64,000 nucleotides of DNA, from assembly GCA_964472625.1 (NCBI GenBank), contig CAYYLM010000003.1, positions 33,294 to 97,293 on the forward strand, read 5' to 3'. Under the pieces are notes generated by a model that was not told the origin of the DNA, ran no database searches, and saw nothing but the letters and a program-made list of their open reading frames with translations. Both the position numbers and the translations under genes were made by a program. The stretch is from an uncultured Dehalococcoidales bacterium. Lineage in GTDB: Bacteria > Chloroflexota > Dehalococcoidia > Dehalococcoidales > UBA5760. The first letter of the stretch is position 1. The number at the start of each line of letters is the position of its first letter. This document shows positions 2,562-44,977 of this stretch, in pieces.

Positions 2562-3119
2562 ATGTCTCAGGACAGGCTCTCAGTAGTACTAAGGATACTT
2601 GATAGCGAGTCACAGCTTATAGAGCGCGCCGATCGAAAAGCGATTGCGTTACTGTCTATCTTGGGCGTGTTTATGGTCTTTTTCCTCGTCTACTACCGCT
2701 TGGTTCCGGTAAGACCAGTCACGGTCGCTTTAACTGCGTCCTATTTTGTTTTAGCGATATTAGCCATAGCGAGCTTGGTCATGACGGTGCGTCCTAGAAT
2801 CTATCGCCGGGAAGAGGCGGAAAGCCGGGGTGCAGATAATACGCCTTCGTGTGACCCCGCCTTTTTTGGTGAAATCTGCAAATTCTCTAGTCTATCGGCC
2901 TATAGAAAGGCGCTTGAGGATATGGTGAGTGATGAATTAAGCATCTTTAATATCTATACAGGACAGATCTTTAATCTAGCTCAAATAAATACTGTAAAAT
3001 ACCGGCATTTACAACGCGCCACATTCATCACTATCGCCGCACTGGCGGTAGAACTTAGTATCATTATTTACCTGTTTGCTAGTTACATGGGAGTGGGCAT
3101 AATGCCCCCGATTATCTAA
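2562..3119 (+). CDS. small multi-TM membrane protein resembling the Pycsar TM-effector domain (DUF5706-like)
   Basis: AAAGGAG lies 7 nt before ATG 2562; the track ORF starts further upstream at TTG 2505. Layout is an N-terminal helix with ADRKA motif, two adjacent TM helices, a soluble linker (FFGEICKF...YTGQIFNLAQINTVKYRHLQRA) and a C-terminal TM helix. The family pattern is recalled from memory and not searched. Confidence 0.5.
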   Translation: MSQDRLSVVLRILDSESQLIERADRKAIALLSILGVFMVFFLVYYRLVPVRPVTVALTASYFVLAILAIASLVMTVRPRIYRREEAESRGADNTPSCDPAFFGEICKFSSLSAYRKALEDMVSDELSIFNIYTGQIFNLAQINTVKYRHLQRATFITIAALAVELSIIIYLFASYMGVGIMPPII

Positions 3120-6456: not shown

Positions 6457-6458
6457 CC

Positions 6459-7331
6459 CTATCCTTGTCCGGCGGTAACTAATAAGCCACGGCGTCGAGA
6501 TAAAAAGATGACCACCAAAATTAATAACGCGATAGCATTATGATACCCGCCCGGTATCACTCCCGCCGTTATTGCTTCAATCATTCCATAAATAAAACCA
6601 CCCAGTATGACACCTTCAGCCCTGGTTATCCCGCCCACAAAGGCGGCCAGGAGCCCTTTAGCGGCTAGTGGTAAGCCCATGCTATAGGAAGTCATCGTTA
6701 GTGGGGTTATCAGGGCACCGACGACAGCACCCAGACCGGCAGCCAGAATGAAGGAGAACAGGGCCATTCTCTCTATGCTTATCCCCATCAACCTTGCCCC
6801 TAGGGGTTCATTGGCACAGGCGCGCAGGGCTTTGCCTTGGATGGTACGCCCAAAATAGAAGAACAGTCCGATCACCATGAGCAGGGTAATCCCGATAACC
6901 CAGGGGGTCTGTCCGAAGATAGTTGCTCCCCACAGCTGAATACTCGGCGTGTCCAAGAAAGCAGGCAGAATCCTGAATTCCCATCCCCAGACACGGAGCG
7001 CTACTCCCTCAATAATGAAGGTAAAACCAAGGGTAAGGAAGACCTTGGTCGCGCCTGAGGCATTCCGCGCCGGGTAGATAATAAACCGGTAGAACCCGGC
7101 GCCGACCAAGCCCGTAATTACCACCGCCAAAGCGATGCTGGCCGGGAGCGGTATGCCCGTGGTGTAGAAGCTAACCGTGAGCATGCCACCGAGCATCACA
7201 AACTCGCCCTGAGCCAGGTTAAGCACCCGGGTGACACTATAAACCACGAAAAAACCCAAGCCCAAGGCGGTATAGATGCTGCCCAGATTTAAGCCGCTAA
7301 AGAAGATCTGCAGAGCAGTCGAAAAGTCCAA
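6459..7331 (-). CDS. livH: branched-chain amino acid ABC transporter permease (LivH-type)
   Basis: Polytopic membrane ORF with LNLAQGEFVMLG motif; 2-nt gap to livM. Confidence 0.8.
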   Translation of the reverse strand: MDFSTALQIFFSGLNLGSIYTALGLGFFVVYSVTRVLNLAQGEFVMLGGMLTVSFYTTGIPLPASIALAVVITGLVGAGFYRFIIYPARNASGATKVFLTLGFTFIIEGVALRVWGWEFRILPAFLDTPSIQLWGATIFGQTPWVIGITLLMVIGLFFYFGRTIQGKALRACANEPLGARLMGISIERMALFSFILAAGLGAVVGALITPLTMTSYSMGLPLAAKGLLAAFVGGITRAEGVILGGFIYGMIEAITAGVIPGGYHNAIALLILVVIFLSRRRGLLVTAGQG

Positions 7332-8672: not shown

Positions 8673-9854
8673 TTAGGGCAGGGGAACCATCTCACCGTCT
8701 CTGAAGGTAACCAGCACCATCCTCCATTCTGTCTGACCAAAGTGGTCGTCGGGGGTCATGGTATAAACGCCGGTGTATAGCTCGAGGCTGACGCCCTGCT
8801 CAAAGGCATCCCTGATCTTGCTTCTGGCTTCTTCTAAACCGAGCTGTCCGGCATTTGCCCTCTTCAGCCCGTCCTCAATAAACAGGATGAACTGCCCACC
8901 CAGAAGGCCCCACATGGATGCCCCGTGGCCGTATCTGGCCTCAAACGCCTCCGCAAACTCTTTATACTTCGCCTTATCAGGGTCAGTGTCATCCAGATAC
9001 TGCCATATGTCAAACTTCGAGGTGCTCGCCACAAAAGGCGGCTCCATCTCAAAGTACTGTCCAAATTCAGCCACCAAGTTGGGAGCCACGTTAGGTGGCG
9101 TACCAACAATCGGCAGGCTAATACCCATCTCCCGGGCCTGCTTGATAGCCAGTGTTGCCACTGGAGTGCCACCCCACAGGAAGATAGCCTCAGCCCCAGA
9201 ATTCTTTATGTTAGTTAGCTGGGGAGTCAGGTCGGTAGCCGTGGGGTCAAAATACTGCTCCGTGGCGATGGTCAGATTATAGTCCGGGCTCATCAGGGGC
9301 AGAAACAACTTACCCCCCTCACCAAAAGAGGAATTCTCGATCAGCGTGGCATAGCGGGAAACGCCCAGCCCCTGCAAATACTCGAAGTTAAGGGTAACGT
9401 AAGATGCCTCCGTTCCGGTGGGCCGGAAAACCCAGTCACCGAGCTGGTCATCGTACATTGTCGTTCCGGTGAGTATCGCCGCTGGCACCTTATTCTCATT
9501 AGCTATCGGTACCAGACTCATGGAGGTACCGGTAGCGGTGGCGGAAGTCAGAATGTGGACTCTGTCCACATCTATCATCTGCTTAGCCGCCAGGGTTGCC
9601 TCAGTTGCCTGACTCTTATCATCGTAAATTACGAGCTCAAGAGGGATTCCATTTATGCCACCAGCTTCATTGACCTTATCGGTCATTAGCTGTAACCCCT
9701 CCAGGGCTTGGAGCCCCAGCCCGGCATACTGGCCCGTCTCCGAGGCAACGATGCCTAATTTATAGGACGCCACCGGCTCAGTTTTCTTGCACGACACCAG
9801 CCCGCCAATGATTAAAACCGCTGACATGATAACCATAATTACTCTCTTGATCAT
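8673..9854 (-). CDS. Liv-type substrate-binding lipoprotein, copy 2 (tandem paralog)
   Basis: Collinear with copy 1 over its full length (same lipobox, EAGG[VI]NGIPLE[VL]VIYD, NLTI..EQYFDP.ATDLT.QLTNIKNS). Confidence 0.8.
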   Translation of the reverse strand: MIKRVIMVIMSAVLIIGGLVSCKKTEPVASYKLGIVASETGQYAGLGLQALEGLQLMTDKVNEAGGINGIPLELVIYDDKSQATEATLAAKQMIDVDRVHILTSATATGTSMSLVPIANENKVPAAILTGTTMYDDQLGDWVFRPTGTEASYVTLNFEYLQGLGVSRYATLIENSSFGEGGKLFLPLMSPDYNLTIATEQYFDPTATDLTPQLTNIKNSGAEAIFLWGGTPVATLAIKQAREMGISLPIVGTPPNVAPNLVAEFGQYFEMEPPFVASTSKFDIWQYLDDTDPDKAKYKEFAEAFEARYGHGASMWGLLGGQFILFIEDGLKRANAGQLGLEEARSKIRDAFEQGVSLELYTGVYTMTPDDHFGQTEWRMVLVTFRDGEMVPLP

Positions 9855-9968: not shown

Positions 9969-10841
9969 TTAGTCTGCCGCCCACCAACTAAATTTAATAA
10001 CTCCCAGCCCATCATGGTGTGTTACCGTTGGGTAGACGGGGGTGATAAAGCATTCGGCACAGGGAAACCGGGACAAAGCAAGCTCTCTAAGCTCCTCGGC
10101 TTCAGTCAGGGCGTCGGTATGATTTATAGCTACGTTTAACCTTCTCCCGTCACTTCTCTCACTTACTATTTCAAACAGCTTTTTCAGCGCTTGCTCTCGA
10201 GTTTTACACCTAACTAGGGGTGTCATCTGCCCTTCAGTGGATGCGGCTACCTCAAGCAGCGCTGTGTTGGTAACCTTAGAACTTGCCCAGGGAAGAGCCT
10301 TATGTATCCTACCCCCCTTAGCCAGAAGAGAGAGGTCGTCAATCAGGGAAATCATGCTAACTCTACTTACCAGATTATTAGTCATTTCGGAGACCTCGGC
10401 TAGGCTCTTACCGGCCGCGGCAGCTCTGGCAGCTTCTATAGCAATGAGCATCTGGGCCCCGCAAACGGTGCGAGTATCTATGACTGCAATGGCAGTTTGA
10501 GGTAGCTCCTCTTTGACCTTTTTTTTCGCCTGTATTGCAGTATTAAACATCATCCCGAACTTTGAACTGTAGCATAGGTATAAAATAGACTCTGCCCTCT
10601 GGCTTAACTCTCGGAATGTTTGCGCGAAATAGCCTATTGAGGCAGATGAAGAGGTAGGCACATCGCCGCCTTCCTTCCACTTCGGTATTTGCCGATAATA
10701 CCACTGAAGGTCTATCTCGGTCTCGAGATATTGTTTACCATCTATGATTATCGTTAACGGTACTAGTCTAATATCGTAAGCGTCCGTTAGTTCCTTAGTC
10801 ATCTGTGAGACGGTATCGGTTATGACGGCAACTCTCTTCAA
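9969..10841 (-). CDS. DegV family fatty-acid-binding protein (FakB-like), paralog 1
   Basis: MKRVAVITDT...TSSSASIGYF...LAKGGRIHKA motifs typical of DegV. Confidence 0.85.
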   Translation of the reverse strand: MKRVAVITDTVSQMTKELTDAYDIRLVPLTIIIDGKQYLETEIDLQWYYRQIPKWKEGGDVPTSSSASIGYFAQTFRELSQRAESILYLCYSSKFGMMFNTAIQAKKKVKEELPQTAIAVIDTRTVCGAQMLIAIEAARAAAAGKSLAEVSEMTNNLVSRVSMISLIDDLSLLAKGGRIHKALPWASSKVTNTALLEVAASTEGQMTPLVRCKTREQALKKLFEIVSERSDGRRLNVAINHTDALTEAEELRELALSRFPCAECFITPVYPTVTHHDGLGVIKFSWWAAD

Positions 10842-10875
10842 TATGGCCTCCGCTTATGCCATTTCACCATAGTGA

Positions 10876-11226
10876 CTATGCCCGGCGTGTGGCTGGTTTG
10901 GTTTGCCGTGCCTCACCCAGTACGTTGGCTACAAACTCCAGGGGTATCCGGCTTCTCTTCGCTATCCTCATCACTGCTTCCCGAAGGAGGCTGTTTAGAA
11001 GCCCGGCATCCTTACACTTGGGCAGAAGGGTAGCGAAGGCACTCTGTAGTTCGGTAATCGAGGCTTCCTCCTCGTGCAGCTCAAGACACTGCTCACAATC
11101 AGCGGCAGCCTCAATAAGGTCACGCAGGCTATCCTGAAGTAGCTCTCCCTGCCGGGCAAGAAATCTCTTGGCGCGCCCAAGCTGCTCTCGGTTAACCTTT
11201 AGGCTATAAACAATCGGATCATCCAT
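10876..11226 (-). CDS. hypothetical protein (116 aa)
   Basis: Strong RBS (AAAGGAGGGGGAG directly before the ATG) on the minus strand. Helical, acidic, no recognisable family. Confidence 0.5.
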   Translation of the reverse strand: MDDPIVYSLKVNREQLGRAKRFLARQGELLQDSLRDLIEAAADCEQCLELHEEEASITELQSAFATLLPKCKDAGLLNSLLREAVMRIAKRSRIPLEFVANVLGEARQTKPATRRA

Positions 11227-11358
11227 CTCCCCCTCCTTTAAAGGGGTCTACAAAAGGTGTGACAGAATATACTATACTTGGGTAGACGGCCCTTGTCAAT
11301 AGTCACAATCGGTCAACATTGGCTCTGGCAACACTTCACGGGGGCCTAAAAAAGGGTA

Positions 11359-11388
11359 TTGACCCGATAGGTATACTTCAGGTATCAT
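11359..11388 (+). promoter_or_regulatory. sigma70-like promoter candidate for the degV-degV-fabF-plsX run
   Basis: TTGACC (11359..11364), 18-nt spacer, TATCAT (11383..11388), 35 nt upstream of the degV start. Confidence 0.3.
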
Positions 11389-11422
11389 CTGCAGTATGCG
11401 TACCGAGAGGGAGAGCTAGGTA

Positions 11423-12295
11423 GTGAAAAAGGTAGCCGTCATGACTGATACTGTAAGCTATATGCCGGAGCAAGTCGCTAGGGAGAATGATATCACCATC
11501 GTACCGGCCTATGTTATCGTGGGCGGCAAATCACATCGCGAGAGTGAGATTGACCTTGCCTGGTTTTATAAACAAGCACCTGAGTGGAAGGAGGCAGACA
11601 GACTCCCAACAACTTCGTCTCCGTCTATAGATGACTTTCTAGGGGCCTACCGCAGACTGAGCCAGCAGGCTGATGGTATTGTATACATCGCCTATAGCAG
11701 CAAGCTTGGCATGGCGGTAAGTGCATCTTCACAAGCCAAGGCGCTGGCCCAAGACGAGCTGCCCCAAACCGCTATAGAAGTGGTTGATTCCCAGAGTGCC
11801 TGTGGTGCCCAGATGCTGGTTGCCCTGGAGGCAGCTAGGGCTGCCGCTGCCGACAAGAGTTTCTCTGAGGTTGTTAAGGTAGCCAAGAATCTGGTAGAGA
11901 AGGTGACCTTTGTTTTCATATCTGATGACCTTTACTATCTGGCCAAGGGAGGCAGGATACATCGGGCTTGTCCCTGGGCGGCCTCAAAAATAACTAACTC
12001 GGTACTTCTGGAGATGGACGCTAGGACTGATGGGCAGAATACCCCTATGGCAAGATGCCGAACCAAAGGCGAGGCCCTAAAGACACTGTTTGATGTGGTG
12101 AAACAGCGGAGCGGTAGCCGGAAACTGCACGTGGCGATAAATCACGCCGATGTGCTGGCAGAGGCTGAGGAATTGAGAAAAAAGGCCTTAACTAACTTCC
12201 AGTGTAGTGAGGTTTTCATCAGTCATATCGGGCCGCTGGTAACAACTCACACAGGGGTGGGAAGCCGCATGTTTTGCTGGTGGGCTGAGGAGTGA
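11423..12295 (+). CDS. DegV family fatty-acid-binding protein, paralog 2
   Basis: Collinear with paralog 1; by eye roughly half the positions are identical, and the WWA C-terminus is the same. Confidence 0.85.
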   Translation: MKKVAVMTDTVSYMPEQVARENDITIVPAYVIVGGKSHRESEIDLAWFYKQAPEWKEADRLPTTSSPSIDDFLGAYRRLSQQADGIVYIAYSSKLGMAVSASSQAKALAQDELPQTAIEVVDSQSACGAQMLVALEAARAAAADKSFSEVVKVAKNLVEKVTFVFISDDLYYLAKGGRIHRACPWAASKITNSVLLEMDARTDGQNTPMARCRTKGEALKTLFDVVKQRSGSRKLHVAINHADVLAEAEELRKKALTNFQCSEVFISHIGPLVTTHTGVGSRMFCWWAEE

Positions 12296-12431
12296 CCGGG
12301 GCTAGGCTATGATTGTAAGGTGGTGTATAATTTAGTGTCTTAAACAATACCCACGTTACCTCAAATACCATTTCTGTTTCCAGGCAGCTTGAGTATCTTT
12401 AGGACTGAAATTATATAAATGGAGGTTCAAC

Positions 12432-13307
12432 ATGAAAAGGGTTGCCATTAGTTGTGATGGGGGAACCGTATTACCCAAGACAGCAGAGAAGTACGGTGTT
12501 ACCGTAATTCCCTGTCCGATTATTATGGATGGCAAGCAGTACCTGGAGCCAGAGGTAAACATGGATGAGCTTTACACCACATTAGATAACAGGGAGAACC
12601 TGCCCACGACCGCGATAGCTAATCCCGAGGAGTTTGCCCAGCATTTCACTAGGCTCAGCCAGGAAGCAGAGGCTATCCTGCACATATGCCAAACGCCCGT
12701 TTTTACCGCACTCTATAAGAATGCCCTGCAAGCTAGGGAGATGCTCAGCGAAAAGTTACCCAAAACAAGGATTGAAGTAGTTAATTCATTTACCGCTGGC
12801 ATAGGCCCCGTCACTCTGGCCATCGGGGCAGCCAAGGCCGCTGCCCAAGGCAAGGGTGTGGATGAGGTTAAGAAGCTCGTGAATTCCATCATACCACGGC
12901 TCAGCTTTATCTCTAATCGTGATACCCTCTTCTACCTTGATAAGGGCGGCCGGATATGTGAGGCCCGCGATTGGGCTAAAGCCGAACCAGCCAATAGCTT
13001 TCGGGCTATCCTTGAGGTTAATGCCGCAACCGAAGGCGTTTTCAAACCCCTAGCCAGGGTCAAGACCCTGACTCAGGTAATGGAGAAGTTCCTTGAGATA
13101 GCCAAAGAGAGAAGCGGGGACGGGCAAAAATTACACGGGACCTTTGGCTATTCCCGAGGTGCCGAAGAGCGCGTTAGCAAACTGAAGGAGATGCTCCTCT
13201 CTGAGCTTCAATTTGACTGGCTCTATGCTGCTGAATATTCAGCAGCGGTAGTGGTGCATAACGGCCGGGGACAAATGGACCTTGCTTTCTACACCCTGCC
13301 AAGCTAG
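12432..13307 (+). CDS. DegV family fatty-acid-binding protein, paralog 3 (more divergent)
   Basis: LPTTAIANPEEF, LDKGGRICEA; DegV fold motifs; RBS GGAGG before the ATG. Confidence 0.8.
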   Translation: MKRVAISCDGGTVLPKTAEKYGVTVIPCPIIMDGKQYLEPEVNMDELYTTLDNRENLPTTAIANPEEFAQHFTRLSQEAEAILHICQTPVFTALYKNALQAREMLSEKLPKTRIEVVNSFTAGIGPVTLAIGAAKAAAQGKGVDEVKKLVNSIIPRLSFISNRDTLFYLDKGGRICEARDWAKAEPANSFRAILEVNAATEGVFKPLARVKTLTQVMEKFLEIAKERSGDGQKLHGTFGYSRGAEERVSKLKEMLLSELQFDWLYAAEYSAAVVVHNGRGQMDLAFYTLPS

Positions 13308-24214: not shown

Positions 24215-24892
24215 TTAGTCTCCAAAAGATACTCTGGCAATATCCTTCAAGGCTTCTCTATCGGTGATTACAATGCGATGACGGTCCATCCTAAGGGTTC
24301 CCTTCGATGCCAGAGCTTTGAGAGACCGGGCAACCACCTCGCGGGCTGTACCGGCCAGGGCTGCCATTTCCTGTTGGGTAAGTCGCTGAACGGGACCGGT
24401 GCCGTCTCCGGCATATTCGAGCAATATTTTGGCTACCCTACGAATAACTGGCCTGAAGGAAAGGTCCTCCACTAAGGATGTTAGGTGACGAACGCGACTT
24501 GCCAGTACATTTATAACATTTAGAGCCACCTGAGAGTGATCACGCAGAATCTTATCAAAAGCGCGTTTTTCTATTCTGTAGATGACAACTGGTCCCATGG
24601 CCTGGGCACTAAATGGATTCGGAGCGCCGTCGAATGCAGGGACGTCATTGAAAGACTCTCCCGGCCGCACAATGCCGAAAATTTGCTCTTTACCATCTGA
24701 CGAAGTCTTGAAGATTTTCACAGCGCCAGAGAACACAAAATATAGAGCCTTAGCCGGCTCACCCTCGAGGGCAATTAGGTCCCCCCTCTCAAATACCTTC
24801 TCAACGACAAGCTTCTGGATCAGATTTAGTTCTTCATCATTCAGATTTGAAAAGTAGGGGCTCTCATGTAAGAAAGATGCTTCGACTACCAT
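24215..24892 (-). CDS. Crp/Fnr family transcriptional regulator
   Basis: cNMP-binding-like beta-roll (GEPAKALYFVFSGAVKIF) and a C-terminal HTH (LTQQEMAALAGTAREVVARSLKAL). Confidence 0.85.
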   Translation of the reverse strand: MVVEASFLHESPYFSNLNDEELNLIQKLVVEKVFERGDLIALEGEPAKALYFVFSGAVKIFKTSSDGKEQIFGIVRPGESFNDVPAFDGAPNPFSAQAMGPVVIYRIEKRAFDKILRDHSQVALNVINVLASRVRHLTSLVEDLSFRPVIRRVAKILLEYAGDGTGPVQRLTQQEMAALAGTAREVVARSLKALASKGTLRMDRHRIVITDREALKDIARVSFGD

Positions 24893-25115
24893 ACCCTTTA
24901 AACCGGAGAATAACTGCTAGATATATTTCAGCCTTATATCCTACCACAGTTTACCGCTTTTCTAAACCACTTGTCTTTGATTTGGTGCCACGGGAGATAT
25001 CCTAATGCCGTTTGGGTTAGATATTGAGATGAAAGTCACATACATAGGACCTGAACAGGGGTAATCTTAAATAGAGTATCGATTGAATTGAATATATGAG
25101 AGGAGATTGATACGC

Positions 25116-25313
25116 ATGGTAGAAAGATTTCTAGAACCCGAGTTATACGGAAAACCACCGTCGGTCTGCCCCAAAGCCAATTGTGGAAGCACGTTTTTCA
25201 TCCCACATGAGGATGGGTGGCAGTGTTTTAATTGCATGAAGATTATCTATAAAGCTAACCGAAGCGTAACGAACCCACCCATTTTAAGGCGATACCAGCG
25301 GGAGAAGAACTGA
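25116..25313 (+). CDS. small zinc-ribbon protein, paralog B
   Basis: AGGAG RBS before ATG 25116 (the track starts at TTG 25107). KPPSVCPKANCG...HEDGWQCFNCMKIIYK matches paralog A. Confidence 0.55.
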   Translation: MVERFLEPELYGKPPSVCPKANCGSTFFIPHEDGWQCFNCMKIIYKANRSVTNPPILRRYQREKN

Positions 25314-25482
25314 AAATTGGCGGATTAGAACTCGATGGGGGGCACCGATATTTCCCCAAAAGGGAGAAAGAGGATGAATAAACATAGCAAAAACTGGCTA
25401 ATGGTTATGGCTTTGGTGTTAGGTGCTGGGGCATGTTCACAAAGTACTTAGTTAGTTGTTTCGATTTAGGAGGAGAGACGCC

Positions 25483-26280
25483 ATGGCTAGAATCTTAATA
25501 ATACCCTTGTTGTTAGCTGGTCTTGTGCTGCCGAGTTTATTAATCGGTTGCAGTGGAACTGGAAATACTGAAACGGAGTGCGACGTGACTACAAAAGCTG
25601 CGATTCCTCTAATAGATACCAATGTACCCCCGGCGATGGAAACAGCGACCTTTGCTTTAGGCTGATTCTGGGGACCGGACTCCCGGTTCGGGAGTCTAGA
25701 GGGGGTGATACGTACTCGTGTCGGATACGCCGGAGGGAGTACGGAAAACCCTACCTATTACAGCTTGGGCGATCACAGCGAGACAATTCAAATCGATTAC
25801 GACCCAACTCAGATATCATATAGGCAGTTATTAGAGGTTTTCTGGAATAGCCATAACCCAATATATGAACCTTGGTCACGGCAGTACATGTCAATAATAT
25901 TTTATCACAGCGAAGAGCAGAAAAGGCTGGCTATAGAGACGAAAGAGAGTGAGGAAGCTAGGCTGGGAAAGCATATTTTTACCGAGATCGTCCCCTTCTC
26001 GGAGTTCTATTTAGCTGAGGATTATCATCAGAAGTATTATCTCCGACAAGAGCCAGCCCTAATGGTAGAGTTTTCTGCTATCTACCCGGCTACCGAAGAC
26101 TTTATAGCTTCCACAGCGGTAGCCCGTGTTAACGGGTATGTTGGTGGCTACGGCGAACTGGCAACTCTTGAGGAGAGGTTGGGCCTCTTGGGCTTGTCTG
26201 AGGCAGGGATAAAAAGGTTGCTAGAAATTGCAGCTAGAGGACTTGAGCCAGTTTGTACCCTTCCCGATACCCCCAGCTAG
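25483..26280 (+). CDS. msrA: peptide-methionine (S)-S-oxide reductase MsrA with in-frame UGA (candidate selenocysteine) and lipoprotein signal
   Basis: Track ORFs 25456..25665 and 25705..26280 share one frame, split only by TGA 25663..25665. Read-through gives [39 protein letters not shown]...IDYDP..ISYRQLLEVFW. AGGAGGA RBS before ATG 25483. Signal peptide with LLIGC lipobox. Confidence 0.75.
25678..25696 (+). promoter_or_regulatory. SECIS-like stem-loop downstream of the msrA UGA
   Basis: Perfect 7-bp hairpin GACTCCC-GGTTC-GGGAGTC starting 12 nt after the TGA. The G/U-containing apical loop lies about 20-22 nt after the UGA. Confidence 0.55.
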
Positions 26281-26379
26281 GCAGTGCTGGTTCAACATCA
26301 TATAAATGAAATAGTGATAAGGACCTTATGGACTAAGATGACGGACAATGGCTTGAGCAGTGAAAAGGGCAAAGCCGGC

Positions 26380-27582
26380 ATGATGAGACTGGTCGCAGTG
26401 ATTCTGATCACCGTTCTCTCAGCTTACTTGTTGGCCAGCTGTTCGATGGTCGGTAGGCAGGTCAGGTTTGAGTTGCCGACGGACAATCTCCCACAAGACA
26501 AACCAGCTGATGACTTCAGTTGGGAGGTGGTACTTGGTGATGTGAACGGTGACAGTCAGCTAGATGTCATCTTTGCTGACGATGGTCAGAATAGGCTCTA
26601 TATCAATTACGGCTCTGGAGTGTTTAGCGATGTCACTTCAACGAGCATGCCGCCAGATACCGATTTGACTTGGGGCACAGCGCTGGGGGACATTAACGGT
26701 GATGGTCACCTGGACGTGGTGTTTGCGAATACCGGTCAAAATCGACTGTGTCTAAACGACGGCTCTGGGGTATTCAGGGATGTCACCTTGACCAATCTTC
26801 CGGAGGATAACGACGACAGCCGGGATGTGGCTGTTGGCGATGTAAATGGTGATGGTCATCTGGATATTGTCTTTGCCAGTCGCTTTGGCCCTAATCGGCT
26901 TCTCCTGAACGATGGATCTGGGGTATTCGGTGATGCGCCACCAGCCGACTTCTCCTCGGGTGGTGGCAACACCCGCGGGGTTGCTCTAGGGGATGTCAAC
27001 AATGACGATAACCTGGACATTGTATTTGCTGTCAAGGATGCCCGGAACCGGCTCCTTCTGAACGATGGATCTGGGACATTCAGTGATGTTACTGAAACCA
27101 ACCTTCCTTATGAGTACGATAATAGCCGAGGAATAGCGCTCGGAGATGTCAATAACGATGGTTATCTTGATATCGTCTTTGCTAATCGTCTGTCCAATCA
27201 GGGTCAGAGCAAGATCTATCTCAACGACGGTTACGGAGTGTTTACCGACGTCACCACCACTCACCTGCCTAAAGCCAACCACTGGAGCACTGATGTTGCT
27301 TTAGCGGACCTAGACGGCGATGGTGATCAGGATGTCGTGTTCGCCAACTTTGACGAGCAAAGCGTAATTTACCTTAACAACGGCTTGGGTGTATTTGAAA
27401 ATATTACCTCAACGCAACTTCCGGTTGGTAAGCAGCAGAGCCTTGGCGTTGCTCTCGGGGATGCTGATAGCGATGGTGACCTAGATATCATCTTTGCCAA
27501 CGCCGGTCAGAACAGTTTGTGGAACAATGTGACAGAACACTCGGTCTCTTTCGGCCCTGTCGGCTGCCGGTGCCCTAGCTGA
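26380..27582 (+). CDS. FG-GAP/VCBS repeat beta-propeller lipoprotein
   Basis: Repeated GDVNGDGHLD[IV]VFAN.GQNRL.LNDGSGVF.DVT units. The signal peptide MMRLVAVILITVLSAYLLASCS sets the preferred start at 26380 (track start 26284). Confidence 0.75.
   Translation: MMRLVAVILITVLSAYLLASCSMVGRQVRFELPTDNLPQDKPADDFSWEVVLGDVNGDSQLDVIFADDGQNRLYINYGSGVFSDVTSTSMPPDTDLTWGTALGDINGDGHLDVVFANTGQNRLCLNDGSGVFRDVTLTNLPEDNDDSRDVAVGDVNGDGHLDIVFASRFGPNRLLLNDGSGVFGDAPPADFSSGGGNTRGVALGDVNNDDNLDIVFAVKDARNRLLLNDGSGTFSDVTETNLPYEYDNSRGIALGDVNNDGYLDIVFANRLSNQGQSKIYLNDGYGVFTDVTTTHLPKANHWSTDVALADLDGDGDQDVVFANFDEQSVIYLNNGLGVFENITSTQLPVGKQQSLGVALGDADSDGDLDIIFANAGQNSLWNNVTEHSVSFGPVGCRCPS
26524..27528 (+). repeat. in-frame tandem FG-GAP repeat units (about 7 copies, approximate limits)
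   Basis: Periodic repetition of the [GD][DV]NGDG.LD..FA motif about every 47-50 codons, visible at the protein and partly at the DNA level. Confidence 0.6.
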
Positions 27583-27724: not shown

Positions 27725-29011
27725 TCACAGGGTGCCCCACACTTTCAGTGCCGCCTCAAGCTCGGGGTTTTCCTTAGCTGCCTGCTCTAGCGGGATCCCA
27801 GCCATCACAGCATCAATTGCCTGCCGGAAGGCTTTGCCGCCGGCCCTGGGTCCCATAGGATGACCATGGATGGCGCCTCCGGCTCCGATGATCCAATCGG
27901 CCCCTAGGTCCTGCACCAAGCGTGGTACCGATCCCTGATGTACCCCCCCTCCGGGCATCGGGAAGGTGGCAGATAGGTCATAGAAGGGAGCACGCAGCAT
28001 CTGTGCTAGCTGAAGGTGCCGGTCTTTCAGGAAGGAAAACTTAGCGTAAGGGGAAGGATAAACTATGATATCGGCTCCGGCTAGGCGGGGGAGCTTACCC
28101 AGAACTAGTGATGAGGACATTCCGGAGACCGGCGATTCGTAGAGAACACCGGCGAAGTCGAGATGGGCTAATATCGGCACGTCAATCTCCGGGTCTTCAG
28201 CCAAGCCCTGCAATACTGATATGCCGGCTGTTAGGTAATTGAGCATGAGAGCGTTAGCCCCGGCGTCTATGGCTCTTTTGGCATTATCGCGCACCCTATC
28301 TGCACTATCCGTTATGTTGACGGTGTACAATGTTCTTTCCCCAGTCTCCTCAAAGGTCTGTCTTTCTGCCTCCATATAAAGCTTGACTCTATCCTCCAGC
28401 CGGCTGAATGGAGCGTCAGCCAGTAACTCATCATCCTTTATTATATCCACCCCGCCAGCAGCGGCTTCGCGGAAGAGTTTCGCTCCCACCTCGGGCGGGA
28501 AGCCGGTGCAGGGCTTGATCATATTATTCAGTAGTGGTCTTTCTGGTATGTCCAGTAGCTTCCGAATGCCGGGTATGCCGAATTTGGGTCCTTTGAATTC
28601 GCGGACAAAGGAGCGGGGGAAATGGAGATCCAGGAGCTTCAGGCGACCCATCATGGAGATGTTCCCGATGACGGTACTGAGCAGCATGGGTATCTGGGCA
28701 CCGAAATTGATGTGGGGGAAGGCGATATTGACCACAAAGGTCCGCCTCTCAATTCCCGCCGGCAGCTCAAACTCGTAGTGAGGTATCTCATATATGCCGA
28801 CGACCTTGCCAGCATGCTTCTGCCGCACCGCCGGCGTCTCCTCGGGTACGGGTACCCAGGTCCCGGTACTCTGCTCGATGGCAATGGAAACGGCATAATT
28901 CAGCACGTCTACATCGGGTTCTTGCTCGATTAGGTAGGTAGCAATTACGTGCTCTTCTGGATTGATACCTTCGGGCACATGGTACAAGGTCCAATCGTAC
29001 ATACTCTGCAT
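27725..29011 (-). CDS. RuBisCO large-subunit-like protein (form IV RLP)
   Basis: GGVDIIKDDE (carbamate Lys/metal ligands) and GAGGAIHGHP are conserved. IKPCTG, AHLDFAG and PGGGVH replace carboxylase residues. AAGGAGGA RBS before ATG 29011 (the track start 29059 overlaps the upstream gene). Confidence 0.8.
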   Translation of the reverse strand: MQSMYDWTLYHVPEGINPEEHVIATYLIEQEPDVDVLNYAVSIAIEQSTGTWVPVPEETPAVRQKHAGKVVGIYEIPHYEFELPAGIERRTFVVNIAFPHINFGAQIPMLLSTVIGNISMMGRLKLLDLHFPRSFVREFKGPKFGIPGIRKLLDIPERPLLNNMIKPCTGFPPEVGAKLFREAAAGGVDIIKDDELLADAPFSRLEDRVKLYMEAERQTFEETGERTLYTVNITDSADRVRDNAKRAIDAGANALMLNYLTAGISVLQGLAEDPEIDVPILAHLDFAGVLYESPVSGMSSSLVLGKLPRLAGADIIVYPSPYAKFSFLKDRHLQLAQMLRAPFYDLSATFPMPGGGVHQGSVPRLVQDLGADWIIGAGGAIHGHPMGPRAGGKAFRQAIDAVMAGIPLEQAAKENPELEAALKVWGTL

Positions 29012-29043
29012 TATCGTATATCCTCCTTGTTGATTAAGGCTGG

Positions 29044-29910
29044 CTAAAGCTTCACCCACGCCGGCACGTTAACCGGCATATCCTTGAAATCTTGGCATAC
29101 TTTAACGACGGCGGGCTCCACCGGGGTGCGCTCGATGCTTGATGCCCCGAGATAGCCGACGGCTTCGGTAGCCGCCAGTACAGGGGCCGTGCTCTTGGGG
29201 TCAGCCATGATGCCACCGTGAGTGATCGCTAGGAAGTCCTTCTGCGGTCGAACCTGCTTGGCGGCATCGATCAGCTCCTTAGTCACGCGGATGCTTTCGT
29301 TGGTGCTCATGACGGTTTCCGCACCAATCAGTCCACCCGCGGTCAGTCCGACGTGACAGGCTACCATGTCGACACCAGCCTTAGCCACTGTCTGAGCTTC
29401 TTGTGGAGTGAAGCAATAGCCGATGGTGAAGTAACCCAGTTCGTGAGCGAGTTCTAGTACCTTGGCTTCCTTATCAAAGCCCAAGCCCGATTCTTCCAGG
29501 TTCTTCCGGTACTTGGCGTCAGCGTCAATTAGGCCGACCGTGGGAAAGTTCATGAAACCCGAGACGCCAATATCCGCTAGTTGCCGGAACCACTGCTCCC
29601 AGACGGTTCTCGGGTCTTGGGCACAGAACCCGGCGATTACTGGTACCTCATTTACCTGAGCGGCTATTTCAGGGGCGTAATCCATAACCATTTCATTGTT
29701 CTGTCCTACCGGCATCAGCCCGCATAGTGAGCCAGCCCCGAAGTGCCGGAACCGGCCAGAGTTGTAAATACCAATAATATCCACCCCACCCCTTTCCTCC
29801 AGCTTGGCGGTGAAGCCGTCGCCAGCCCCGGCGACAATGATGGGCTTTCCCTCCTTCAATGTCTTCTTAAGCCGGCTTACGAGTTCCTCAGGGGTGTACC
29901 TCTTGGTCAT
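29044..29910 (-). CDS. phosphoenolpyruvate-hydrolase-like TIM-barrel protein (TIM-br_sig_trns family)
   Basis: KPIIVAGAGDGFTAKLEERGGVDIIGIYNSGRFRHFGAGSLCGLMPVGQNNEMV matches the family hallmark region. AGGAGGAAAGAA precedes ATG 29910. Confidence 0.75.
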   Translation of the reverse strand: MTKRYTPEELVSRLKKTLKEGKPIIVAGAGDGFTAKLEERGGVDIIGIYNSGRFRHFGAGSLCGLMPVGQNNEMVMDYAPEIAAQVNEVPVIAGFCAQDPRTVWEQWFRQLADIGVSGFMNFPTVGLIDADAKYRKNLEESGLGFDKEAKVLELAHELGYFTIGYCFTPQEAQTVAKAGVDMVACHVGLTAGGLIGAETVMSTNESIRVTKELIDAAKQVRPQKDFLAITHGGIMADPKSTAPVLAATEAVGYLGASSIERTPVEPAVVKVCQDFKDMPVNVPAWVKL

Positions 29911-29953
29911 TTCTTTCCTCCTAATTATAAATACTGTGCCTGGCAAGTTTATC

Positions 29954-31300
29954 CTAGAACGGAATGAACTCAGCTATATTATAATGGCTGCCCTTCTTCC
30001 AGGTGCCGGATAGCATCTCATCCAGTAGCTTTGCCATCAGGTCAGCAAACTCTGGCTCGTTCATATGCTGGTCTACCAGCAGCACATCCAGATTGGGCTT
30101 ATCCCGGTCAACCACTTGGCGCAAAGCGTCAACAAAACGTTCGGCACGCAGCGACCATTCAGGCTTCTCAGGATCGGAAACCCAGCAGGGAGCTGGTGAC
30201 TCCTCGGCCCAACCCAAATCCGGATTGGGACCGGCGGTGTCGTAGGCTCCCCATCCGCGCATCGGTACGCATAAAGCAGTCGGGCCAGTCGCTTGGTTGA
30301 GCTTATCAGCAATGTGCTTACCGATCATAAAGGCTTCGTCGAGTGAAGTACCGACGATGGTAACCGTTGGATTGTGGACATGAACCACCCGTCCCGGGAT
30401 GTCGAGTTCTCCTTTATATTTCTGCGGTACTGTCGCCGCGGGACCGAAATTTATCATATCCAGGCCTCCGGTGGAGACTACCTGGGGAATACCCGTGCGA
30501 CCGGCTGCCGTCAGGCGGTCAGGGCCAGCACTCAGGACACCACCAAGCAATAGGTCAGCGATTTCGTGGGTAGTGATGTCCAACATGCCGACAATATAGC
30601 CATCTAGGATCAACTCTTCCATTGAGCGACCTCCAGTGCCTACCGCGTGGTTAATCATCACGTCGTACCTTCCCCCGTCCTCAAAGTACTTGGAGGCCCG
30701 CAGCACGCAGGGTGTAGTTACCCCGAACATCGTGCAGCCGATAAGTGACTTCTCCTCCGCGACTCTTGGCTCAGGGACGGTAGCCATGCCCACGATGGCA
30801 CCAGCCGCATTGTTCAAGATTTTGCGCGTTACCACATTGAGCCCACCTTCGGCGATGGGGTAGAGCATACCAATATCCTTGGTGCCAACATAGGGGCGAA
30901 CATCACCCGAAGCCATGGTTGAAAGCACCAATTTAGGCATGCCCACGGGCAGCTTCTGCATAGCCTGCGTTGCCATACTCGTGCCCATCGAGCCGCCCAT
31001 GGCAATTATGCCGTCTAGCCTGCCGTGCTCCAGTAACTCAATGAGAACCCTGATGGCACCCTCAACGATGACCTCCGACGCCTTAGCCCGCTCCAGGGCA
31101 AAGATTTCGCCGGTGGCGCGTCCAACCTTGGCGACTACCTCACTGAGGCTGATATCAGCCCAGCCTACCTCTTTACCCACACTCATTTCCAGAATAATAG
31201 GGTTACCGCCAGCAGCACGCACTCGTTCAGCTAGGAAACGAATCTCAGTGCCCTTAGTATCTAAGATGCCGGCGACTACAATATTGGGTTTCTTCGTCAT
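29954..31300 (-). CDS. UPF0261 / Tm-1-like ATP-binding domain protein
   Basis: N-terminus IVVAGILDTKGTEIRFLAERV and a length of about 450 aa are typical of UPF0261. Confidence 0.75.
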   Translation of the reverse strand: MTKKPNIVVAGILDTKGTEIRFLAERVRAAGGNPIILEMSVGKEVGWADISLSEVVAKVGRATGEIFALERAKASEVIVEGAIRVLIELLEHGRLDGIIAMGGSMGTSMATQAMQKLPVGMPKLVLSTMASGDVRPYVGTKDIGMLYPIAEGGLNVVTRKILNNAAGAIVGMATVPEPRVAEEKSLIGCTMFGVTTPCVLRASKYFEDGGRYDVMINHAVGTGGRSMEELILDGYIVGMLDITTHEIADLLLGGVLSAGPDRLTAAGRTGIPQVVSTGGLDMINFGPAATVPQKYKGELDIPGRVVHVHNPTVTIVGTSLDEAFMIGKHIADKLNQATGPTALCVPMRGWGAYDTAGPNPDLGWAEESPAPCWVSDPEKPEWSLRAERFVDALRQVVDRDKPNLDVLLVDQHMNEPEFADLMAKLLDEMLSGTWKKGSHYNIAEFIPF

Positions 31301-41750: not shown

Positions 41751-42245
41751 CTATGGTAAGAAGTCAAGTTCTTCCACACCGAACTGGGCGCAGACGATGT
41801 GGAATTCGCCGTCGATCTCTTGGAAGTATATGCGAACCCTCTTCCCTTCATGAAAGATAGGCTGGTCTTCGACTACTTGGGTGATATCGCCAACTGTGCC
41901 GCCCGGCGTGATGATTTGCAGCCTATCTTGAGCAAAGGGGGCGCCTTTCACATACTCCTCTATCGACAGATCAGTGTAGGTAAGAATGCTGGTCTTGTCT
42001 TCATTCCATTTGCTTTCAACCCCTCGCACGGTACCTTCAACGATGTAATCGGCAGTGCTGATAATGTATTGTCTATCCTGACATTCGGCGATGAGGGCAG
42101 AGGCGCCCCCCGTCTGTTTGACCACTACCGGGCCTGGGGATGGCGAGGGCTGGAGCTCCGGCACTGTCGGTGTGCATCCCGCTAGGACTATCAAGAGGCT
42201 GAGTGACGTGGTAACGAGTGCCGTCCCAAACGTGGCTATTTTCAT
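41751..42245 (-). CDS. hypothetical lipoprotein
   Basis: Signal peptide with LAGC lipobox and a Pro-rich linker; no recognisable family. Confidence 0.55.
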   Translation of the reverse strand: MKIATFGTALVTTSLSLLIVLAGCTPTVPELQPSPSPGPVVVKQTGGASALIAECQDRQYIISTADYIVEGTVRGVESKWNEDKTSILTYTDLSIEEYVKGAPFAQDRLQIITPGGTVGDITQVVEDQPIFHEGKRVRIYFQEIDGEFHIVCAQFGVEELDFLP

Positions 42246-42306: not shown

Positions 42307-43593
42307 TCAAGTAGCCGGGTTCAAAACACGGCCTATGAATAGTATGCTGCCGGTTTCAATATCGCGAATCAGAAAGATGAAGGGGCGATTAGCAGTGAAT
42401 TCAACCGGTGTCCCGGGTAGTGCCGTTACCTTCATAATAACTGCCGTAGCCGCTGCTGCTTCCGTACCGGCTTCATCCACCGAAACAAATGCCTTATGAA
42501 CCACGGCTGATATGAACAGGTCGCGACCACCGGTCATGCCGGAAAAGTCCGCACCTTCAGTAAAAGCGATGGGCATACCCATTGCCATAAGGGCCTCCTT
42601 CAATTTGAAGGCTGAATCAAACTCGAATTTGGGCATGGCCAGGGCGACCTGTCTCTGATCCAGAGCATTTACAATAGCGTTTACTTGCTCGGCATTTAGC
42701 GATTCTTCAAACGCCTCAAACTGACCAGCTCGGGGCAGTAAAATTACCATCGAGAGTTCACCACCGTCATAAGGCAGCTCAACCGCCTGATAGTTGTCAT
42801 CTTCGGTGTAGTCAAATGATTCCGTTTGCCTCATCATCGGCACGGTCACCTCTCCGCCGTCGAGCCGGTAAAATTGGCTATCGCTGGTTATCGCCTCGTT
42901 GAAAGGATACTGCCAGGCTGCATTGAAGTAAATGGCGTTCGTAAGGACGAGCCTGGTGAGTATATCAATCAGGCCCTGCGGGATGAGGTCTTCAATTCGA
43001 CCTTCCGTCTGGTCACTGACCCAGTTGTTAATGATGAGCCGGGACTCTTCCGGCGCGCTGGCAAAGTCTAAGGGTCTGAGTCCGGCACCATAGTTCTCTG
43101 CCAATACGTCAAGGAAGGTGGGGAGAAAGTGATAACCCTTTTGGCCCCAGATGGCATTAACGATGTGCAATCGGAACCCCTCATCATCCTTACCTTCAGC
43201 GCCTTCGCCGCGCTTTCCGAGTTCTATATCGAGGCTATTGAATGCTGGATGCAGGCGATTTTGAGAGAGAGTGAAATGAAGGGCATCGGCCATCTGCTGT
43301 TCGGTCTCGCCTCGGGCACCAGCGTAGGTCATCGCTAGCGCTAGCGATATGCTATAGGGAGAGTAGAAGAGGTTACCATCTTCTTCCCTGAGTGCCTGAT
43401 ATAGATTGAACGCAAAAGCGCTATTCCCCTCAACCAGAGGTTTAAGGTCAGTTTCAGTCACTTCTGGTGAAGTCACGCGCGGCTTCTCCGATTGTACTAT
43501 CTCACCGGCTACCGCTTGGACACAGGACGTCAGGCACAGCGGTACTACTACCAGCATACACAGAAAAACCTTTTTCATTTTAGCTGCCTCCAA
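42307..43593 (-). CDS. serpin family serine protease inhibitor, secreted
   Basis: FYSPYSISLALAMTYAGARGET, hinge/RCL DEAGTEAAAATAVIMKVTALPG, then FTANRPFIFLIRD. N-terminal signal peptide (start possibly MKKVF at 43578). Confidence 0.8.
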   Translation of the reverse strand: MEAAKMKKVFLCMLVVVPLCLTSCVQAVAGEIVQSEKPRVTSPEVTETDLKPLVEGNSAFAFNLYQALREEDGNLFYSPYSISLALAMTYAGARGETEQQMADALHFTLSQNRLHPAFNSLDIELGKRGEGAEGKDDEGFRLHIVNAIWGQKGYHFLPTFLDVLAENYGAGLRPLDFASAPEESRLIINNWVSDQTEGRIEDLIPQGLIDILTRLVLTNAIYFNAAWQYPFNEAITSDSQFYRLDGGEVTVPMMRQTESFDYTEDDNYQAVELPYDGGELSMVILLPRAGQFEAFEESLNAEQVNAIVNALDQRQVALAMPKFEFDSAFKLKEALMAMGMPIAFTEGADFSGMTGGRDLFISAVVHKAFVSVDEAGTEAAAATAVIMKVTALPGTPVEFTANRPFIFLIRDIETGSILFIGRVLNPAT

Positions 43594-43933: not shown

Positions 43934-44977
43934 ATGATGGTCAAGCCGGGCAAGATATGCTTTATGGTGGTCGCAATTCTGGCTTTTGTTCTCATCCTCG
44001 TGGGCTGCCGCTCTAGCCCGTCGACCAAGATAACCTTTGTTACCGACCGTGATGGCGATGCAGAAATCTATGTGATGAATGCCGATGGCTCTAACCAGAC
44101 TAACCTCACCAATGCCCCGTCTTTGGATAGTATGCCGTCCTGGTCGCCGGACGGTACCAGGATAGCCTTTATGACCTACCGCGATGGCAATTTGGAAATC
44201 TATGTGATAGATGCCGACGGTTCCAACCAGACTAACCTCACTAATTACCCGGCGGCGCAAGATGACATGCCGTCCTGGTCACCGGACGGTACCAAGATAG
44301 CCTTTAGGACTAACCGTGATGGCAATGATGAAATCTATGTGATGGATGCCGACGGCTCCAACCAGACCAACATCACCAAGAACCCGGCTGGTGATGTTAA
44401 GCCATCCTGGTCACCGGACAGCACCAGAATAGCCTTTGAAACCCAACGCGGTGGCAATTGTGAAATCTATGTAGTGGATGCCGACGGTTCTAACCAGACC
44501 AATCTCACCAATAATCCAACCCTTGACACTTGGTTTATCAGTTGGTTGCTACCCTGGTCGCCGGACGGTACCAAGATAGCCTTTAATACCAACCGTGATG
44601 GCAATTTGGAAATCTATGTGATGAATACCGACGGTTCTAACCAGACCAACCTCACCAATAACCCGGCTAATGATCAGTCTCCGTCTTGGTCACCGGACGG
44701 TACCAGAATAGCCTTTGAGTCCTACCGTGATGGCAATTCTGAAATCTACGTGATGGATGCTAATGGTTCTAATCAGACCAGACTTACCAATAACCAATTT
44801 ATGGATAGTATGCCATTCTGGTCACCGGACGGTACCAAAATAGCCTTTAGTACCAATCATGATGGCAATTCTGAAATCTACGTGATGGATGCCGATGGCT
44901 CCAACCAGACTAAGCTCACTGAGAACAATGCTACCGATATTAACGAAGCCTGGTCACCTAATCTGCATATACCATAA
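43934..44977 (+). CDS. TolB-like PD40/WD40-like beta-propeller repeat lipoprotein
   Basis: Seven units of [33 protein letters not shown]. Signal peptide with LVGC lipobox. Confidence 0.8.
44021..44963 (+). repeat. seven in-frame tandem PD40 repeat units with long near-identical DNA stretches (approximate limits)
   Basis: Strings such as GATGCCGACGGTTCTAACCAGACCAA and TGGTCACCGGACGGTACCA recur about every 135 nt. Confidence 0.6.

Follow-up and report, generated by a model that had tools for sequence, protein, structure and literature searches.

A probable selenocysteine MsrA with a predicted lipoprotein signal in an uncultured Dehalococcoidales bacterium

Does the TGA codon within a gene for methionine sulfoxide reductase end the protein, or does it encode selenocysteine (Sec)? 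The gene is an msrA from an uncultured Dehalococcoidales bacterium (phylum Chloroflexota), at 25483..26280 on the forward (+) strand of a 64,000-nucleotide (nt) stretch of contig CAYYLM010000003.1, which we will call the window. (All coordinates are positions in the window unless stated otherwise.) An earlier note on this DNA had proposed that the gene encodes a selenoprotein that is also a lipoprotein. We consider it highly likely that msrA encodes an intact MsrA of 265 residues, of the same type as the selenoprotein CoMsrA from Clostridium (Alkaliphilus) oremlandii OhILAs; that Sec is inserted at the UGA with the help of a bacterial selenocysteine insertion sequence (SECIS); and, somewhat less firmly, that the enzyme is anchored by a lipid outside the cytoplasm.

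One TGA codon in an intact reading frame

The msrA gene is a complete coding sequence only if the UGA is read through. It starts with an ATG at 25483, has a single in-frame TGA at 25663–25665, and continues for 204 more codons up to a TAG at 26278–26280, which places Sec at residue 61 of the 265-residue precursor. In the read-through translation, the TGA replaces the nucleophilic cysteine of the GCFWG motif of MsrA (giving GUFWG). The earlier note had placed the TGA at this catalytic position, and a direct reading of the sequence agrees; it also shows no other disruption of the frame. A sequence that resembles a Shine-Dalgarno site, AGGAGGAG (25468..25475, + strand), lies 7 nt upstream of the ATG. 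The nearest species representative is a metagenome-assembled genome (MAG) from the Dehalococcoidales, whose msrA locus (L001) encodes a protein 82% identical to the window's. The two loci share the block TTTAGGAG...ATGGCTAGA in the start region, and farther upstream their sequences are unrelated. Because the homology begins abruptly at the ribosome-binding site, the start codon is fixed as the ATG at 25483. Gene callers choose another open reading frame (ORF), which begins with a GTG at 25705 and encodes 191 amino acids (aa) without any catalytic motif.

Residues 54–190 of the read-through protein (25642..26052, + strand) match the catalytic domain of MsrA (PMSR; Pfam PF01625, E = 1.6e-43, 149 bits), and the NCBIfam model TIGR00401 scores 130.9 bits against a cutoff of 108.1. 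Residues 209–249 (26107..26229, + strand) match PF20939 ([quoted passage not shown]), a C-terminal domain that is typical of selenoprotein MsrA. The latter match is marginal (24.6 bits, with a cutoff of 23.7), but it is backed by an unbroken alignment to residues 6–205 of CoMsrA. The top matches in the PDB are entries for CoMsrA (4LWJ, 4U66, and 7C13), with E = 1.4e-68 and about 58% identity over about 200 residues (51–250). The remaining MsrA structures trail far behind (E around 1e-31). CoMsrA is a natural selenoprotein that is 20-fold more active than its Cys form and that needs its C-terminal helical domain for activity (PMC4333827). More broadly, MsrA proteins with Sec in a GUFWG or GUFWH motif are an established family of prokaryotic selenoproteins (PMC13188914; PMC1976440; PMC2398784). 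The NCBIfam scan also gave a weak match, over the MsrA domain, to NF041383 ("VPGUxxT family thioredoxin-like (seleno)protein, type 2"; 39.9 bits, far under the cutoff); this suggests that members of NF041383 may be fusions of an MsrA-like module with a Sec-thioredoxin fold.

We examined homologous DNA from 80 species-representative genomes and 80 metagenome contigs, and we located the codon for the catalytic site in 146 loci. The codon is TGA in 137 loci and TGC or TGT in the other 9, so the alternation is only with Cys codons. Among the species-representative genomes alone, 68 of 70 have TGA. The TGA forms span the Chloroflexota (both Dehalococcoidia and Anaerolineae), the Desulfobacterota, the Nitrospirota, the Bacillota, the Planctomycetota, and other groups, and they include a cultured bacterium, Desulforamulus aeronauticus DSM 10349 (Bacillota). 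Sec forms of MsrA had been described as rare in the earlier note, but within the subfamily with the helical domain, Sec is the rule and Cys the exception (137 versus 9 of the 146 loci). When the window is compared with L001, the ratio of nonsynonymous to synonymous substitution rates (dN/dS) is 0.44 over the 59 aligned codons upstream of the TGA and 0.15 over the 204 codons downstream of it. Thus, both halves of msrA are maintained as protein, by purifying selection.

A protein search found dozens of database homologues of exactly 191 aa, 72–99% identical to the window's protein, which all start at the same GTG. Longer database homologues have Cys or Trp at the catalytic site; the Trp is a TGA that was translated with genetic code 4. 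Across our collection of homologues (proteins P0001–P0120 and loci L001–L167), Sec-type msrA is systematically mis-called, mostly as 191-aa fragments and sometimes with Trp in the active site. In other words, this msrA and dozens of its orthologues stand in the databases as a 191-aa MsrA that lacks the catalytic residue or has a spurious Trp, and reading the TGA as Sec restores a complete enzyme.

Does this lineage use Sec? One result weighs against the selenoprotein: we found no selA, selB, selD, or tRNA-Sec within the 64-kb window using ARAGORN, Rfam, and Pfam. (The Pfam scans covered all 56 other non-shadow ORFs in the window of at least 120 aa, and the only hit from ARAGORN and Rfam was a tRNA-Val.) Similarly, in 60 related loci that we scanned for tRNA genes, there was no tRNA-Sec near msrA. 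A related locus, L164, has an AhpC-TSA/SelL-related redox gene about 3 kb from its msrA (at 10817–11293 on the + strand of that locus) which is split by an in-frame TGA (F-U-P-F-C). Judging by its sequence, this gene is likely to encode a second selenoprotein in the lineage. We did not find its counterpart in the window, and a scan of the window for pairs of ORFs that are split by TGA yielded no second credible selenoprotein. In BSepDB, MAGs of the Dehalococcoidia rank among the bacteria with the most selenoproteins, at 46–49 per genome (PMC13326102). Together, the TGA-interrupted gene in L164 and these MAGs are indirect support for the use of Sec in the lineage.

The gene callers in effect treat msrA as a nonsense pseudogene, in which a TGC or TGT became TGA and the product is either just 60 aa or so or else a dead 191-aa protein from the GTG at 25705. 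The many database entries that begin at that GTG fit with this explanation, as does a window in which Sec machinery was not seen. But the same TGA is found in loci from several phyla, the frame has no additional disruptions, and the dN/dS values are those of a gene that is kept as protein. Furthermore, a hairpin downstream of the TGA is conserved and covarying (see below), and the 191-aa product would lack the catalytic motif. We regard the chance that this is a pseudogene as negligible, and these sequence comparisons exclude it for practical purposes. The earlier note had argued against a pseudogene from the intact downstream frame and the hairpin, and that argument is strengthened by the homologues.

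Alternatively, the UGA might be read as Trp, Cys, or Gly, either by a near-cognate or suppressor tRNA or because the code is reassigned, which would yield an MsrA without selenium. Some pipelines did assign Trp to this site in homologues, and a window without visible Sec machinery is consistent with this idea as well. However, TGA is a regular stop codon in the window: 17 of 57 genes end with it, and msrA is the only one of the 57 that has an in-frame TGA. This implies that the genetic code is standard and that one codon is recoded. Also, Trp or Gly as the catalytic nucleophile would be inactive, and alternation with Cys codons alone is the classic signature of exchange between Sec and Cys. 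Finally, a structure that fits the model for SECIS lies at the right distance from the UGA, and the closest characterized homologue is a proven selenoprotein. So non-Sec decoding seems very improbable. From the comparative evidence, we have very little doubt that the gene encodes a Sec-containing MsrA.

The hairpin downstream of the UGA

The earlier note had described a perfect hairpin of 7 base pairs (bp), 12 nt past the UGA, and the sequence is exactly as described: GACUCCC-GGUUC-GGGAGUC, at 25678–25696. A G-U pair lengthens the stem, so that the full hairpin is at 25677..25697 (+ strand), with 25677–25685 paired to 25689–25697 and an apical GUU at 25686–25688. (Alternatively, the apical loop can be drawn as the 5 nt GGUUC, 25685–25689.) The predicted energy of this hairpin is −14.3 kcal/mol.

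In the consensus model for bacterial SECIS elements (bSECIS), the loop has 3–9 nt, the upper stem has 4–16 bp, the spacing between the UGA and the loop is 16–37 nt, and the minimum free energy (MFE) is −7.5 kcal/mol or below (PMC13188914, Fig. 2). The model also has a G at position 1 or 2 of the loop, typically as N1-G-[G/U]-N-N2, where N1 and N2 pair (PMC13188914, Fig. 2). In the window, the loop is GGUUC (5 nt) or GUU (3 nt, closed by a G-C pair), the stem has 7–9 bp, there are 19 nt (25666–25684) between the UGA and the loop, and the energy of −14.3 kcal/mol lies below the threshold. And G-G-U-U-C matches N1-G-[G/U]-N-N2 exactly.

Is this hairpin more than a by-product of the codons that it contains? 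When we resampled codons while keeping the peptide fixed, using the codon usage of the window, 16 of 5,000 draws gave an 8-bp stem in this register, and 34 of 5,000 gave one of 7 bp or more. Several other results count against the hairpin. In the same kind of resampling, the overall folding energy of 45 nt is ordinary (717 of 5,000 draws are equally stable). The MFE fold of 71 nt uses a different pairing instead of the hairpin at 25678–25696 (z = −1.4). The outer three pairs of the stem are retained in only about half of homologues, although the window is among the retainers. And the RNAalifold consensus of 68 homologous sequences is a different and weak helix, which pairs the UGA itself. Because the energies of single sequences are unremarkable, the case for a SECIS rests on comparative data.

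For the comparison, we used an ungapped alignment of 68 homologues that contain the TGA, with 500 shuffles of the columns as the null. The hairpin has 32 double-sided compensatory cells, versus 9.6 in the shuffles, and none of the 500 shuffles reached the observed value. The compensatory changes are at three pairs of the stem (C-G to U-A or A-U; U-A to G-C; and G-C to A-U), and the covariation score is above that of every register that we obtained by sliding the stem. The inner five pairs are retained in nearly all of the 68 homologues. In the relatives whose MsrA is 82–99% identical to the window's, the stem is either unchanged or altered only to a wobble pair.

The loop is conserved as well. 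All 137 of the TGA forms have the GUU, in the context GGUUC (89 loci), AGUUU (25), AGUUC (19), GUUUC (3), or GGUUU (1). In 7 of the 9 Cys forms, the loop G is lost: the codon for Arg or Gln (CGG or CAG) is replaced by a codon for Leu, Ile, or Thr. The switch from Sec to Cys goes with the loss of the loop G, which makes these loci a natural data set for how a SECIS evolves inside a constrained coding sequence. The earlier note had suggested comparing orthologues for alternation between Cys and TGA and for covariation in the hairpin, and both are seen.

We also considered that the functional RNA might be the alternative helix found by RNAalifold (25663–25665 paired with 25688–25690, and 25668–25672 with 25682–25686), which might act by masking the stop codon or as the SelB site. 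This helix is the consensus structure, and 99.3% of the cells in the alignment can pair. However, its columns are nearly invariant and encode F-W-G and S-R/Q-F; shuffled alignments also reach 99.3%, and there are no compensatory changes. Since these columns are fixed by the peptide, their pairing carries no information. In addition, the apical loop of this helix begins 7 nt past the UGA, which is outside the bSECIS range of 16–37 nt, and the helix is weak (−7.2 kcal/mol for the consensus). Given the established footprint of the ribosome, the helix would also be unwound by the ribosome that is decoding the UGA. It may form in free mRNA, but we think it improbable that it is the functional element. 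(We also rejected the MFE hairpin at 25672–25678/25683–25689, which shows no covariation.)

Given that the covariation is confined to the hairpin at 25677–25697 and not shared by the competing folds, and that all four constraints of the bSECIS model agree with it, the earlier suggestion of a SECIS-like element can be put more firmly: as far as comparative sequence analysis can tell, this hairpin is the SECIS, and we predict that SelB binds it. If decoding follows the mechanism established for bacteria, SelB·GTP·Sec-tRNASec would bind the hairpin as the ribosome arrives at the UGA (25663–25665), and Sec would be inserted instead of translation terminating.

Predicted export, the C-terminal cysteine, and neighboring genes

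The first 23 residues of the MsrA precursor, MARILIIPLLLAGLVLPSLLIGC, have the parts of a lipoprotein signal: an n-region that begins with M-A-R, an h-region (ILIIPLLLAGLVLPSLL), and a lipobox, L-I-G-C (25540–25551), that ends at Cys23 (codon 25549–25551). The predicted signal peptide, MARILIIPLLLAGLVLPSLLIG followed by the Cys that would be lipidated, is at 25483..25551 (+ strand). The sequence passes a strict lipobox rule, which we wrote in the style of PROSITE PS51257: K or R within the first 7 residues, an uncharged h-region, Cys at position 15–35, and the pattern [LIVMFWSTAG]2-[LIVMFYSTAGCQ]-[AGS]-C (the lipobox itself being [LVI][ASTVI][GAS]C). The lipobox is kept as LLVGC or LLIGC in the close relatives L001, L164, L165, and L166 (MsrA 82–99% identical), so the prediction of a lipoprotein, which was already made in the earlier note, has stood up. 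Seven other proteins in the window have the same type of signal, including two substrate-binding proteins of ATP-binding cassette (ABC) transporters. ABC substrate-binding proteins are textbook lipoproteins of single-membrane bacteria. These seven proteins imply that this organism normally uses lipid anchors to keep proteins outside its membrane. Neither Lgt nor LspA is encoded in the window, although no search was aimed at them.

The earlier note had considered an extracytoplasmic Sec-containing MsrA to be unusual, but many Sec forms carry such signals: 48 of 137 Sec-type homologues pass the strict lipobox rule, and with looser scoring, the N-terminus is lipobox-like or hydrophobic in 110 of the 137. 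(In a tally over homologues with complete C-termini, 63 have a hydrophobic N-terminus that fails the strict rule, and about 20 have no signal, like CoMsrA.) From the sequences, exported Sec-containing MsrA appears to be a widespread and little-discussed variant, which is found across the family and is not peculiar to this genome. We found no description of an exported or lipoprotein form of Sec-containing MsrA in the literature that we searched, including surveys of selenoproteomes (which make no mention of signal peptides), although our coverage was incomplete. Most of the Sec forms in our sample have a signal for export or anchoring. For strict anaerobes with a selenoenzyme on their surface, the question is what would reduce it outside the cytoplasm.

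Alternatively, the N-terminus of the Sec-containing MsrA might be a secretory signal of the ordinary kind or stay uncleaved as a membrane anchor, or the protein might start farther downstream and be cytoplasmic, like CoMsrA. The homologues with a hydrophobic N-terminus that fails the strict rule, and those with no signal at all, make this conceivable. Also, CoMsrA itself is cytoplasmic and depends on glutaredoxin (PMC4333827). Two further observations tell against export of the window's protein: our call of a signal peptide comes from a pattern rule rather than from a trained predictor, and there is no gene for an extracytoplasmic reductant nearby. On the other hand, a strong Shine-Dalgarno sequence precedes the ATG at 25483, which is exactly where the conservation with L001 begins. 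Between the lipobox and the catalytic domain, the only candidates for a later start are a GTG (Val35), GTA-type codons that are not starts, and an ATG (Met52), with no obvious ribosome-binding site. The lipobox Cys is present in all of the close relatives as well as in the 48 loci, and genes adjacent to msrA in relatives also encode proteins with a lipobox. So an anchor of another kind or a cytoplasmic location is unlikely, and we think that MsrA is probably an exported lipoprotein.

If so, then the N-terminal 22 residues would be removed as a lipoprotein signal peptide and the mature enzyme would be lipidated on Cys23. A linker of about 25 residues would hold it on the outer side of the cytoplasmic membrane, where we propose that the enzyme repairs oxidized methionines in surface proteins.

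How might this enzyme be recycled? The MsrA proteins of E. coli and cattle have C-terminal recycling cysteines. In the window's protein, the only Cys downstream of the Sec is Cys258 (codon 26254..26256, + strand), which is in the motif E-P-V-C-T-L-P. Its wider context in the window is ...RGLEPVCTLP, and the Cys is conserved in L001, L164, L165, and L166. More broadly, 46 of 133 Sec-type homologues have a Cys about 197 residues past the Sec, usually in P-x-C-P-[VL], and 76 of about 133–135 complete Sec-type homologues have no Cys downstream of the Sec. By analogy, Cys258 is a candidate for the resolving cysteine, with about even odds. In this scheme, Sec61 of G-U-F-W-G would attack the sulfoxide and become a selenenic acid, Cys258 would resolve the selenenic acid to a selenenylsulfide, and an external thiol reductant would then reduce the selenenylsulfide. 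CoMsrA lacks a resolving Cys; glutaredoxin, and not thioredoxin, recycles it (PMC4333827). With Cys258 present and conserved in its clade, the window's MsrA is not a 1-Cys enzyme like CoMsrA; by sequence, it seems to lie inside the CoMsrA-type family but to be another redox subtype, with Sec and a C-terminal Cys. This subtype offers a comparison with the 1-Cys CoMsrA.

The neighboring genes give two more reasons for caution about an extracytoplasmic enzyme. First, among 110 loci, we did not find a recurrent neighbor that is thioredoxin-like (CxxC) or a reductant of the CcdA/DsbD type, from which an extracytoplasmic enzyme might draw its electrons. Second, the commonest neighbor is msrB, which is upstream of msrA on the same strand in 24 loci, and the representative MsrB that we inspected has no obvious signal peptide. 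There is no msrB near msrA in the window. (The Sec-type msrA has msrB directly upstream in, for example, L104, L046, L021, and L086, and a few loci encode a fused MsrB-MsrA, such as P0051 with 394 aa.)

In the window, a divergent gene upstream of msrA (24215..24892, − strand) encodes a regulator of the Crp/Fnr family, with the Pfam domains cNMP_binding and HTH_Crp_2. The same neighbor is present in L081, L164, L165, and L166. From this arrangement, we infer a possible regulatory link between the Crp/Fnr regulator and msrA. Immediately downstream of msrA is a gene for a protein with FG-GAP repeats (26284..27582, + strand; FG-GAP_3, E = 3.8e-76) and a lipobox of its own (LLASC); it also adjoins msrA in L081, L164, and L166. 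(These coordinates run from the first possible start codon, and the signal peptide favors an ATG about 32–33 codons farther downstream.) The order of Crp/Fnr regulator, msrA, and FG-GAP lipoprotein recurs in L081, L164, and L166; L165 has the first two, and for the gene downstream of its msrA, no domain match is on record. Between the Crp/Fnr gene and msrA, the window has an ORF of 68 aa (25107–25313, + strand) with four cysteines in a zinc-ribbon-like arrangement (C-P-x-x-N-C ... C-F-N-C), and ORFs of similar size were called at the matching position in L081, L164, and L166.

In L164 and L165, whose MsrA proteins are 93% and 88% identical to the window's, the gene directly upstream of msrA (at 6298–6987 and 8990–9721 of those loci, respectively) encodes a lipoprotein of 229–243 aa with a molybdopterin domain of the sulfite-oxidase fold. 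These putative oxidoreductases match PF00174 and fall under every NCBIfam cutoff, with weak matches to SoxC, SorA, and MsrP. At the corresponding place, the window has a stub of 25 codons (25375..25452, + strand), MNKHSKNWLMVMALVLGAGACSQST followed by a stop codon, with a lipobox-like end. The stub matches the N-termini of the PF00174 proteins, MIKHSKKWMITALVLGAVLTVSC in L164 and MIKYSRNWLIMMALLLGAALTVSC in L165. By this match, 25375–25452 appears to be the leftover signal peptide of a molybdo-oxidoreductase gene that both the window and the syntenic L166 have lost by deletion.

These observations lead us to a tentative proposal, to which we give slightly less than even odds. Many anaerobic bacteria of sediments and groundwater (Dehalococcoidia, Anaerolineae, Desulfobacterota, and Nitrospirota) may display a lipid-anchored, Sec-containing MsrA that forms a selenenylsulfide with its C-terminal Cys. 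In some lineages, it would act with a lipoprotein of the sulfite-oxidase fold and a Crp/Fnr regulator as an extracytoplasmic repair module, and the window would hold a reduced version of this module, with the molybdoenzyme cut down to the 25-codon stub. The family of Sec-containing MsrA was already known and structurally characterized, and our results do not overturn current knowledge; we consider the lipoprotein form, the subtype with a C-terminal Cys, and the missing reductant to be modestly interesting.

We also noticed some other genes in the window. A cluster on the − strand (27725–31300), which is conserved in L166, encodes a homologue of the large subunit of RuBisCO (444 aa) together with a protein similar to phosphoenolpyruvate hydrolases and a UPF0261 protein; this is possibly an operon for a RuBisCO-like protein rather than for carbon fixation. 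The ORF at 2505–3119 (+ strand) matches the transmembrane domain of Pycsar effectors (PycTM, PF18967), a component of anti-phage systems that use cyclic nucleotides; we did not notice an adjacent cyclase, but no search was aimed at it. A full-length serpin (PF00079, E = 1e-123) is encoded in this bacterial genome at 42307–43593 (− strand), next to a small lipoprotein (41751–42245) and a lipoprotein with a PD40 beta-propeller (43934–44977). And at 9969–13307, three paralogues of the DegV family (fatty-acid-binding proteins) are clustered next to fabF and plsX.

Comparison with known systems

The bacterial SECIS of E. coli fdhF and the hairpin in the window are both within the coding sequence and directly downstream of the UGA. 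In both, the apical loop is small, lies about 20 nt past the UGA, and contains a G followed by a U. In fdhF, the loop nucleotides G23 and U24 are critical. The primary sequence of the fdhF element is unrelated to that of the window's hairpin, however, and no bulged U is evident in the window's copy. Some homologues have a lower stem (UCUGGGG/CCCCGGA) that is absent from the window's copy.

The closest characterized protein is CoMsrA (PDB 4LWJ, 4LWK, 4LWL, 4LWM, 4U66, and 7C13). The two proteins share the PMSR domain and the special C-terminal helical domain, Sec in place of the Cys of GCFWG, and about 58% identity. But CoMsrA, at 209 aa, is cytoplasmic and is a 1-Cys type with no Cys at all, while the window's protein has a 50-residue N-terminal extension with the lipoprotein signal. 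Also, the window's protein, unlike CoMsrA, has the conserved Cys258, in a P-x-C-x-x-P tail.

The Sec-containing MsrA of eukaryotes (such as Chlamydomonas) and the prokaryotic entries in surveys of selenoproteomes have the same replacement of Cys by Sec, in GUFWG or GUFWH (PMC13188914; PMC1976440; PMC2398784). In the eukaryotic genes, the SECIS is in the 3′ untranslated region, unlike in the window's gene.

Finally, if it is exported, the window's MsrA would resemble PilB/MsrAB of Neisseria, MsrAB2 of Streptococcus pneumoniae (with Etrx and CcdA), and the periplasmic MsrP of E. coli in repairing methionine sulfoxide outside the cytoplasmic membrane. Those enzymes use Cys, or molybdenum in the case of MsrP, and their electrons are supplied by a fused thioredoxin domain with DsbD (PilB/MsrAB), by Etrx with CcdA (MsrAB2), or by MsrQ (MsrP). 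The window's MsrA differs from all three in its predicted Sec nucleophile and in having no linked gene for a reductant. The likeness to MsrP extends to the neighborhood: in close relatives, msrA adjoins a gene for a lipoprotein with the fold of sulfite oxidase and MsrP.

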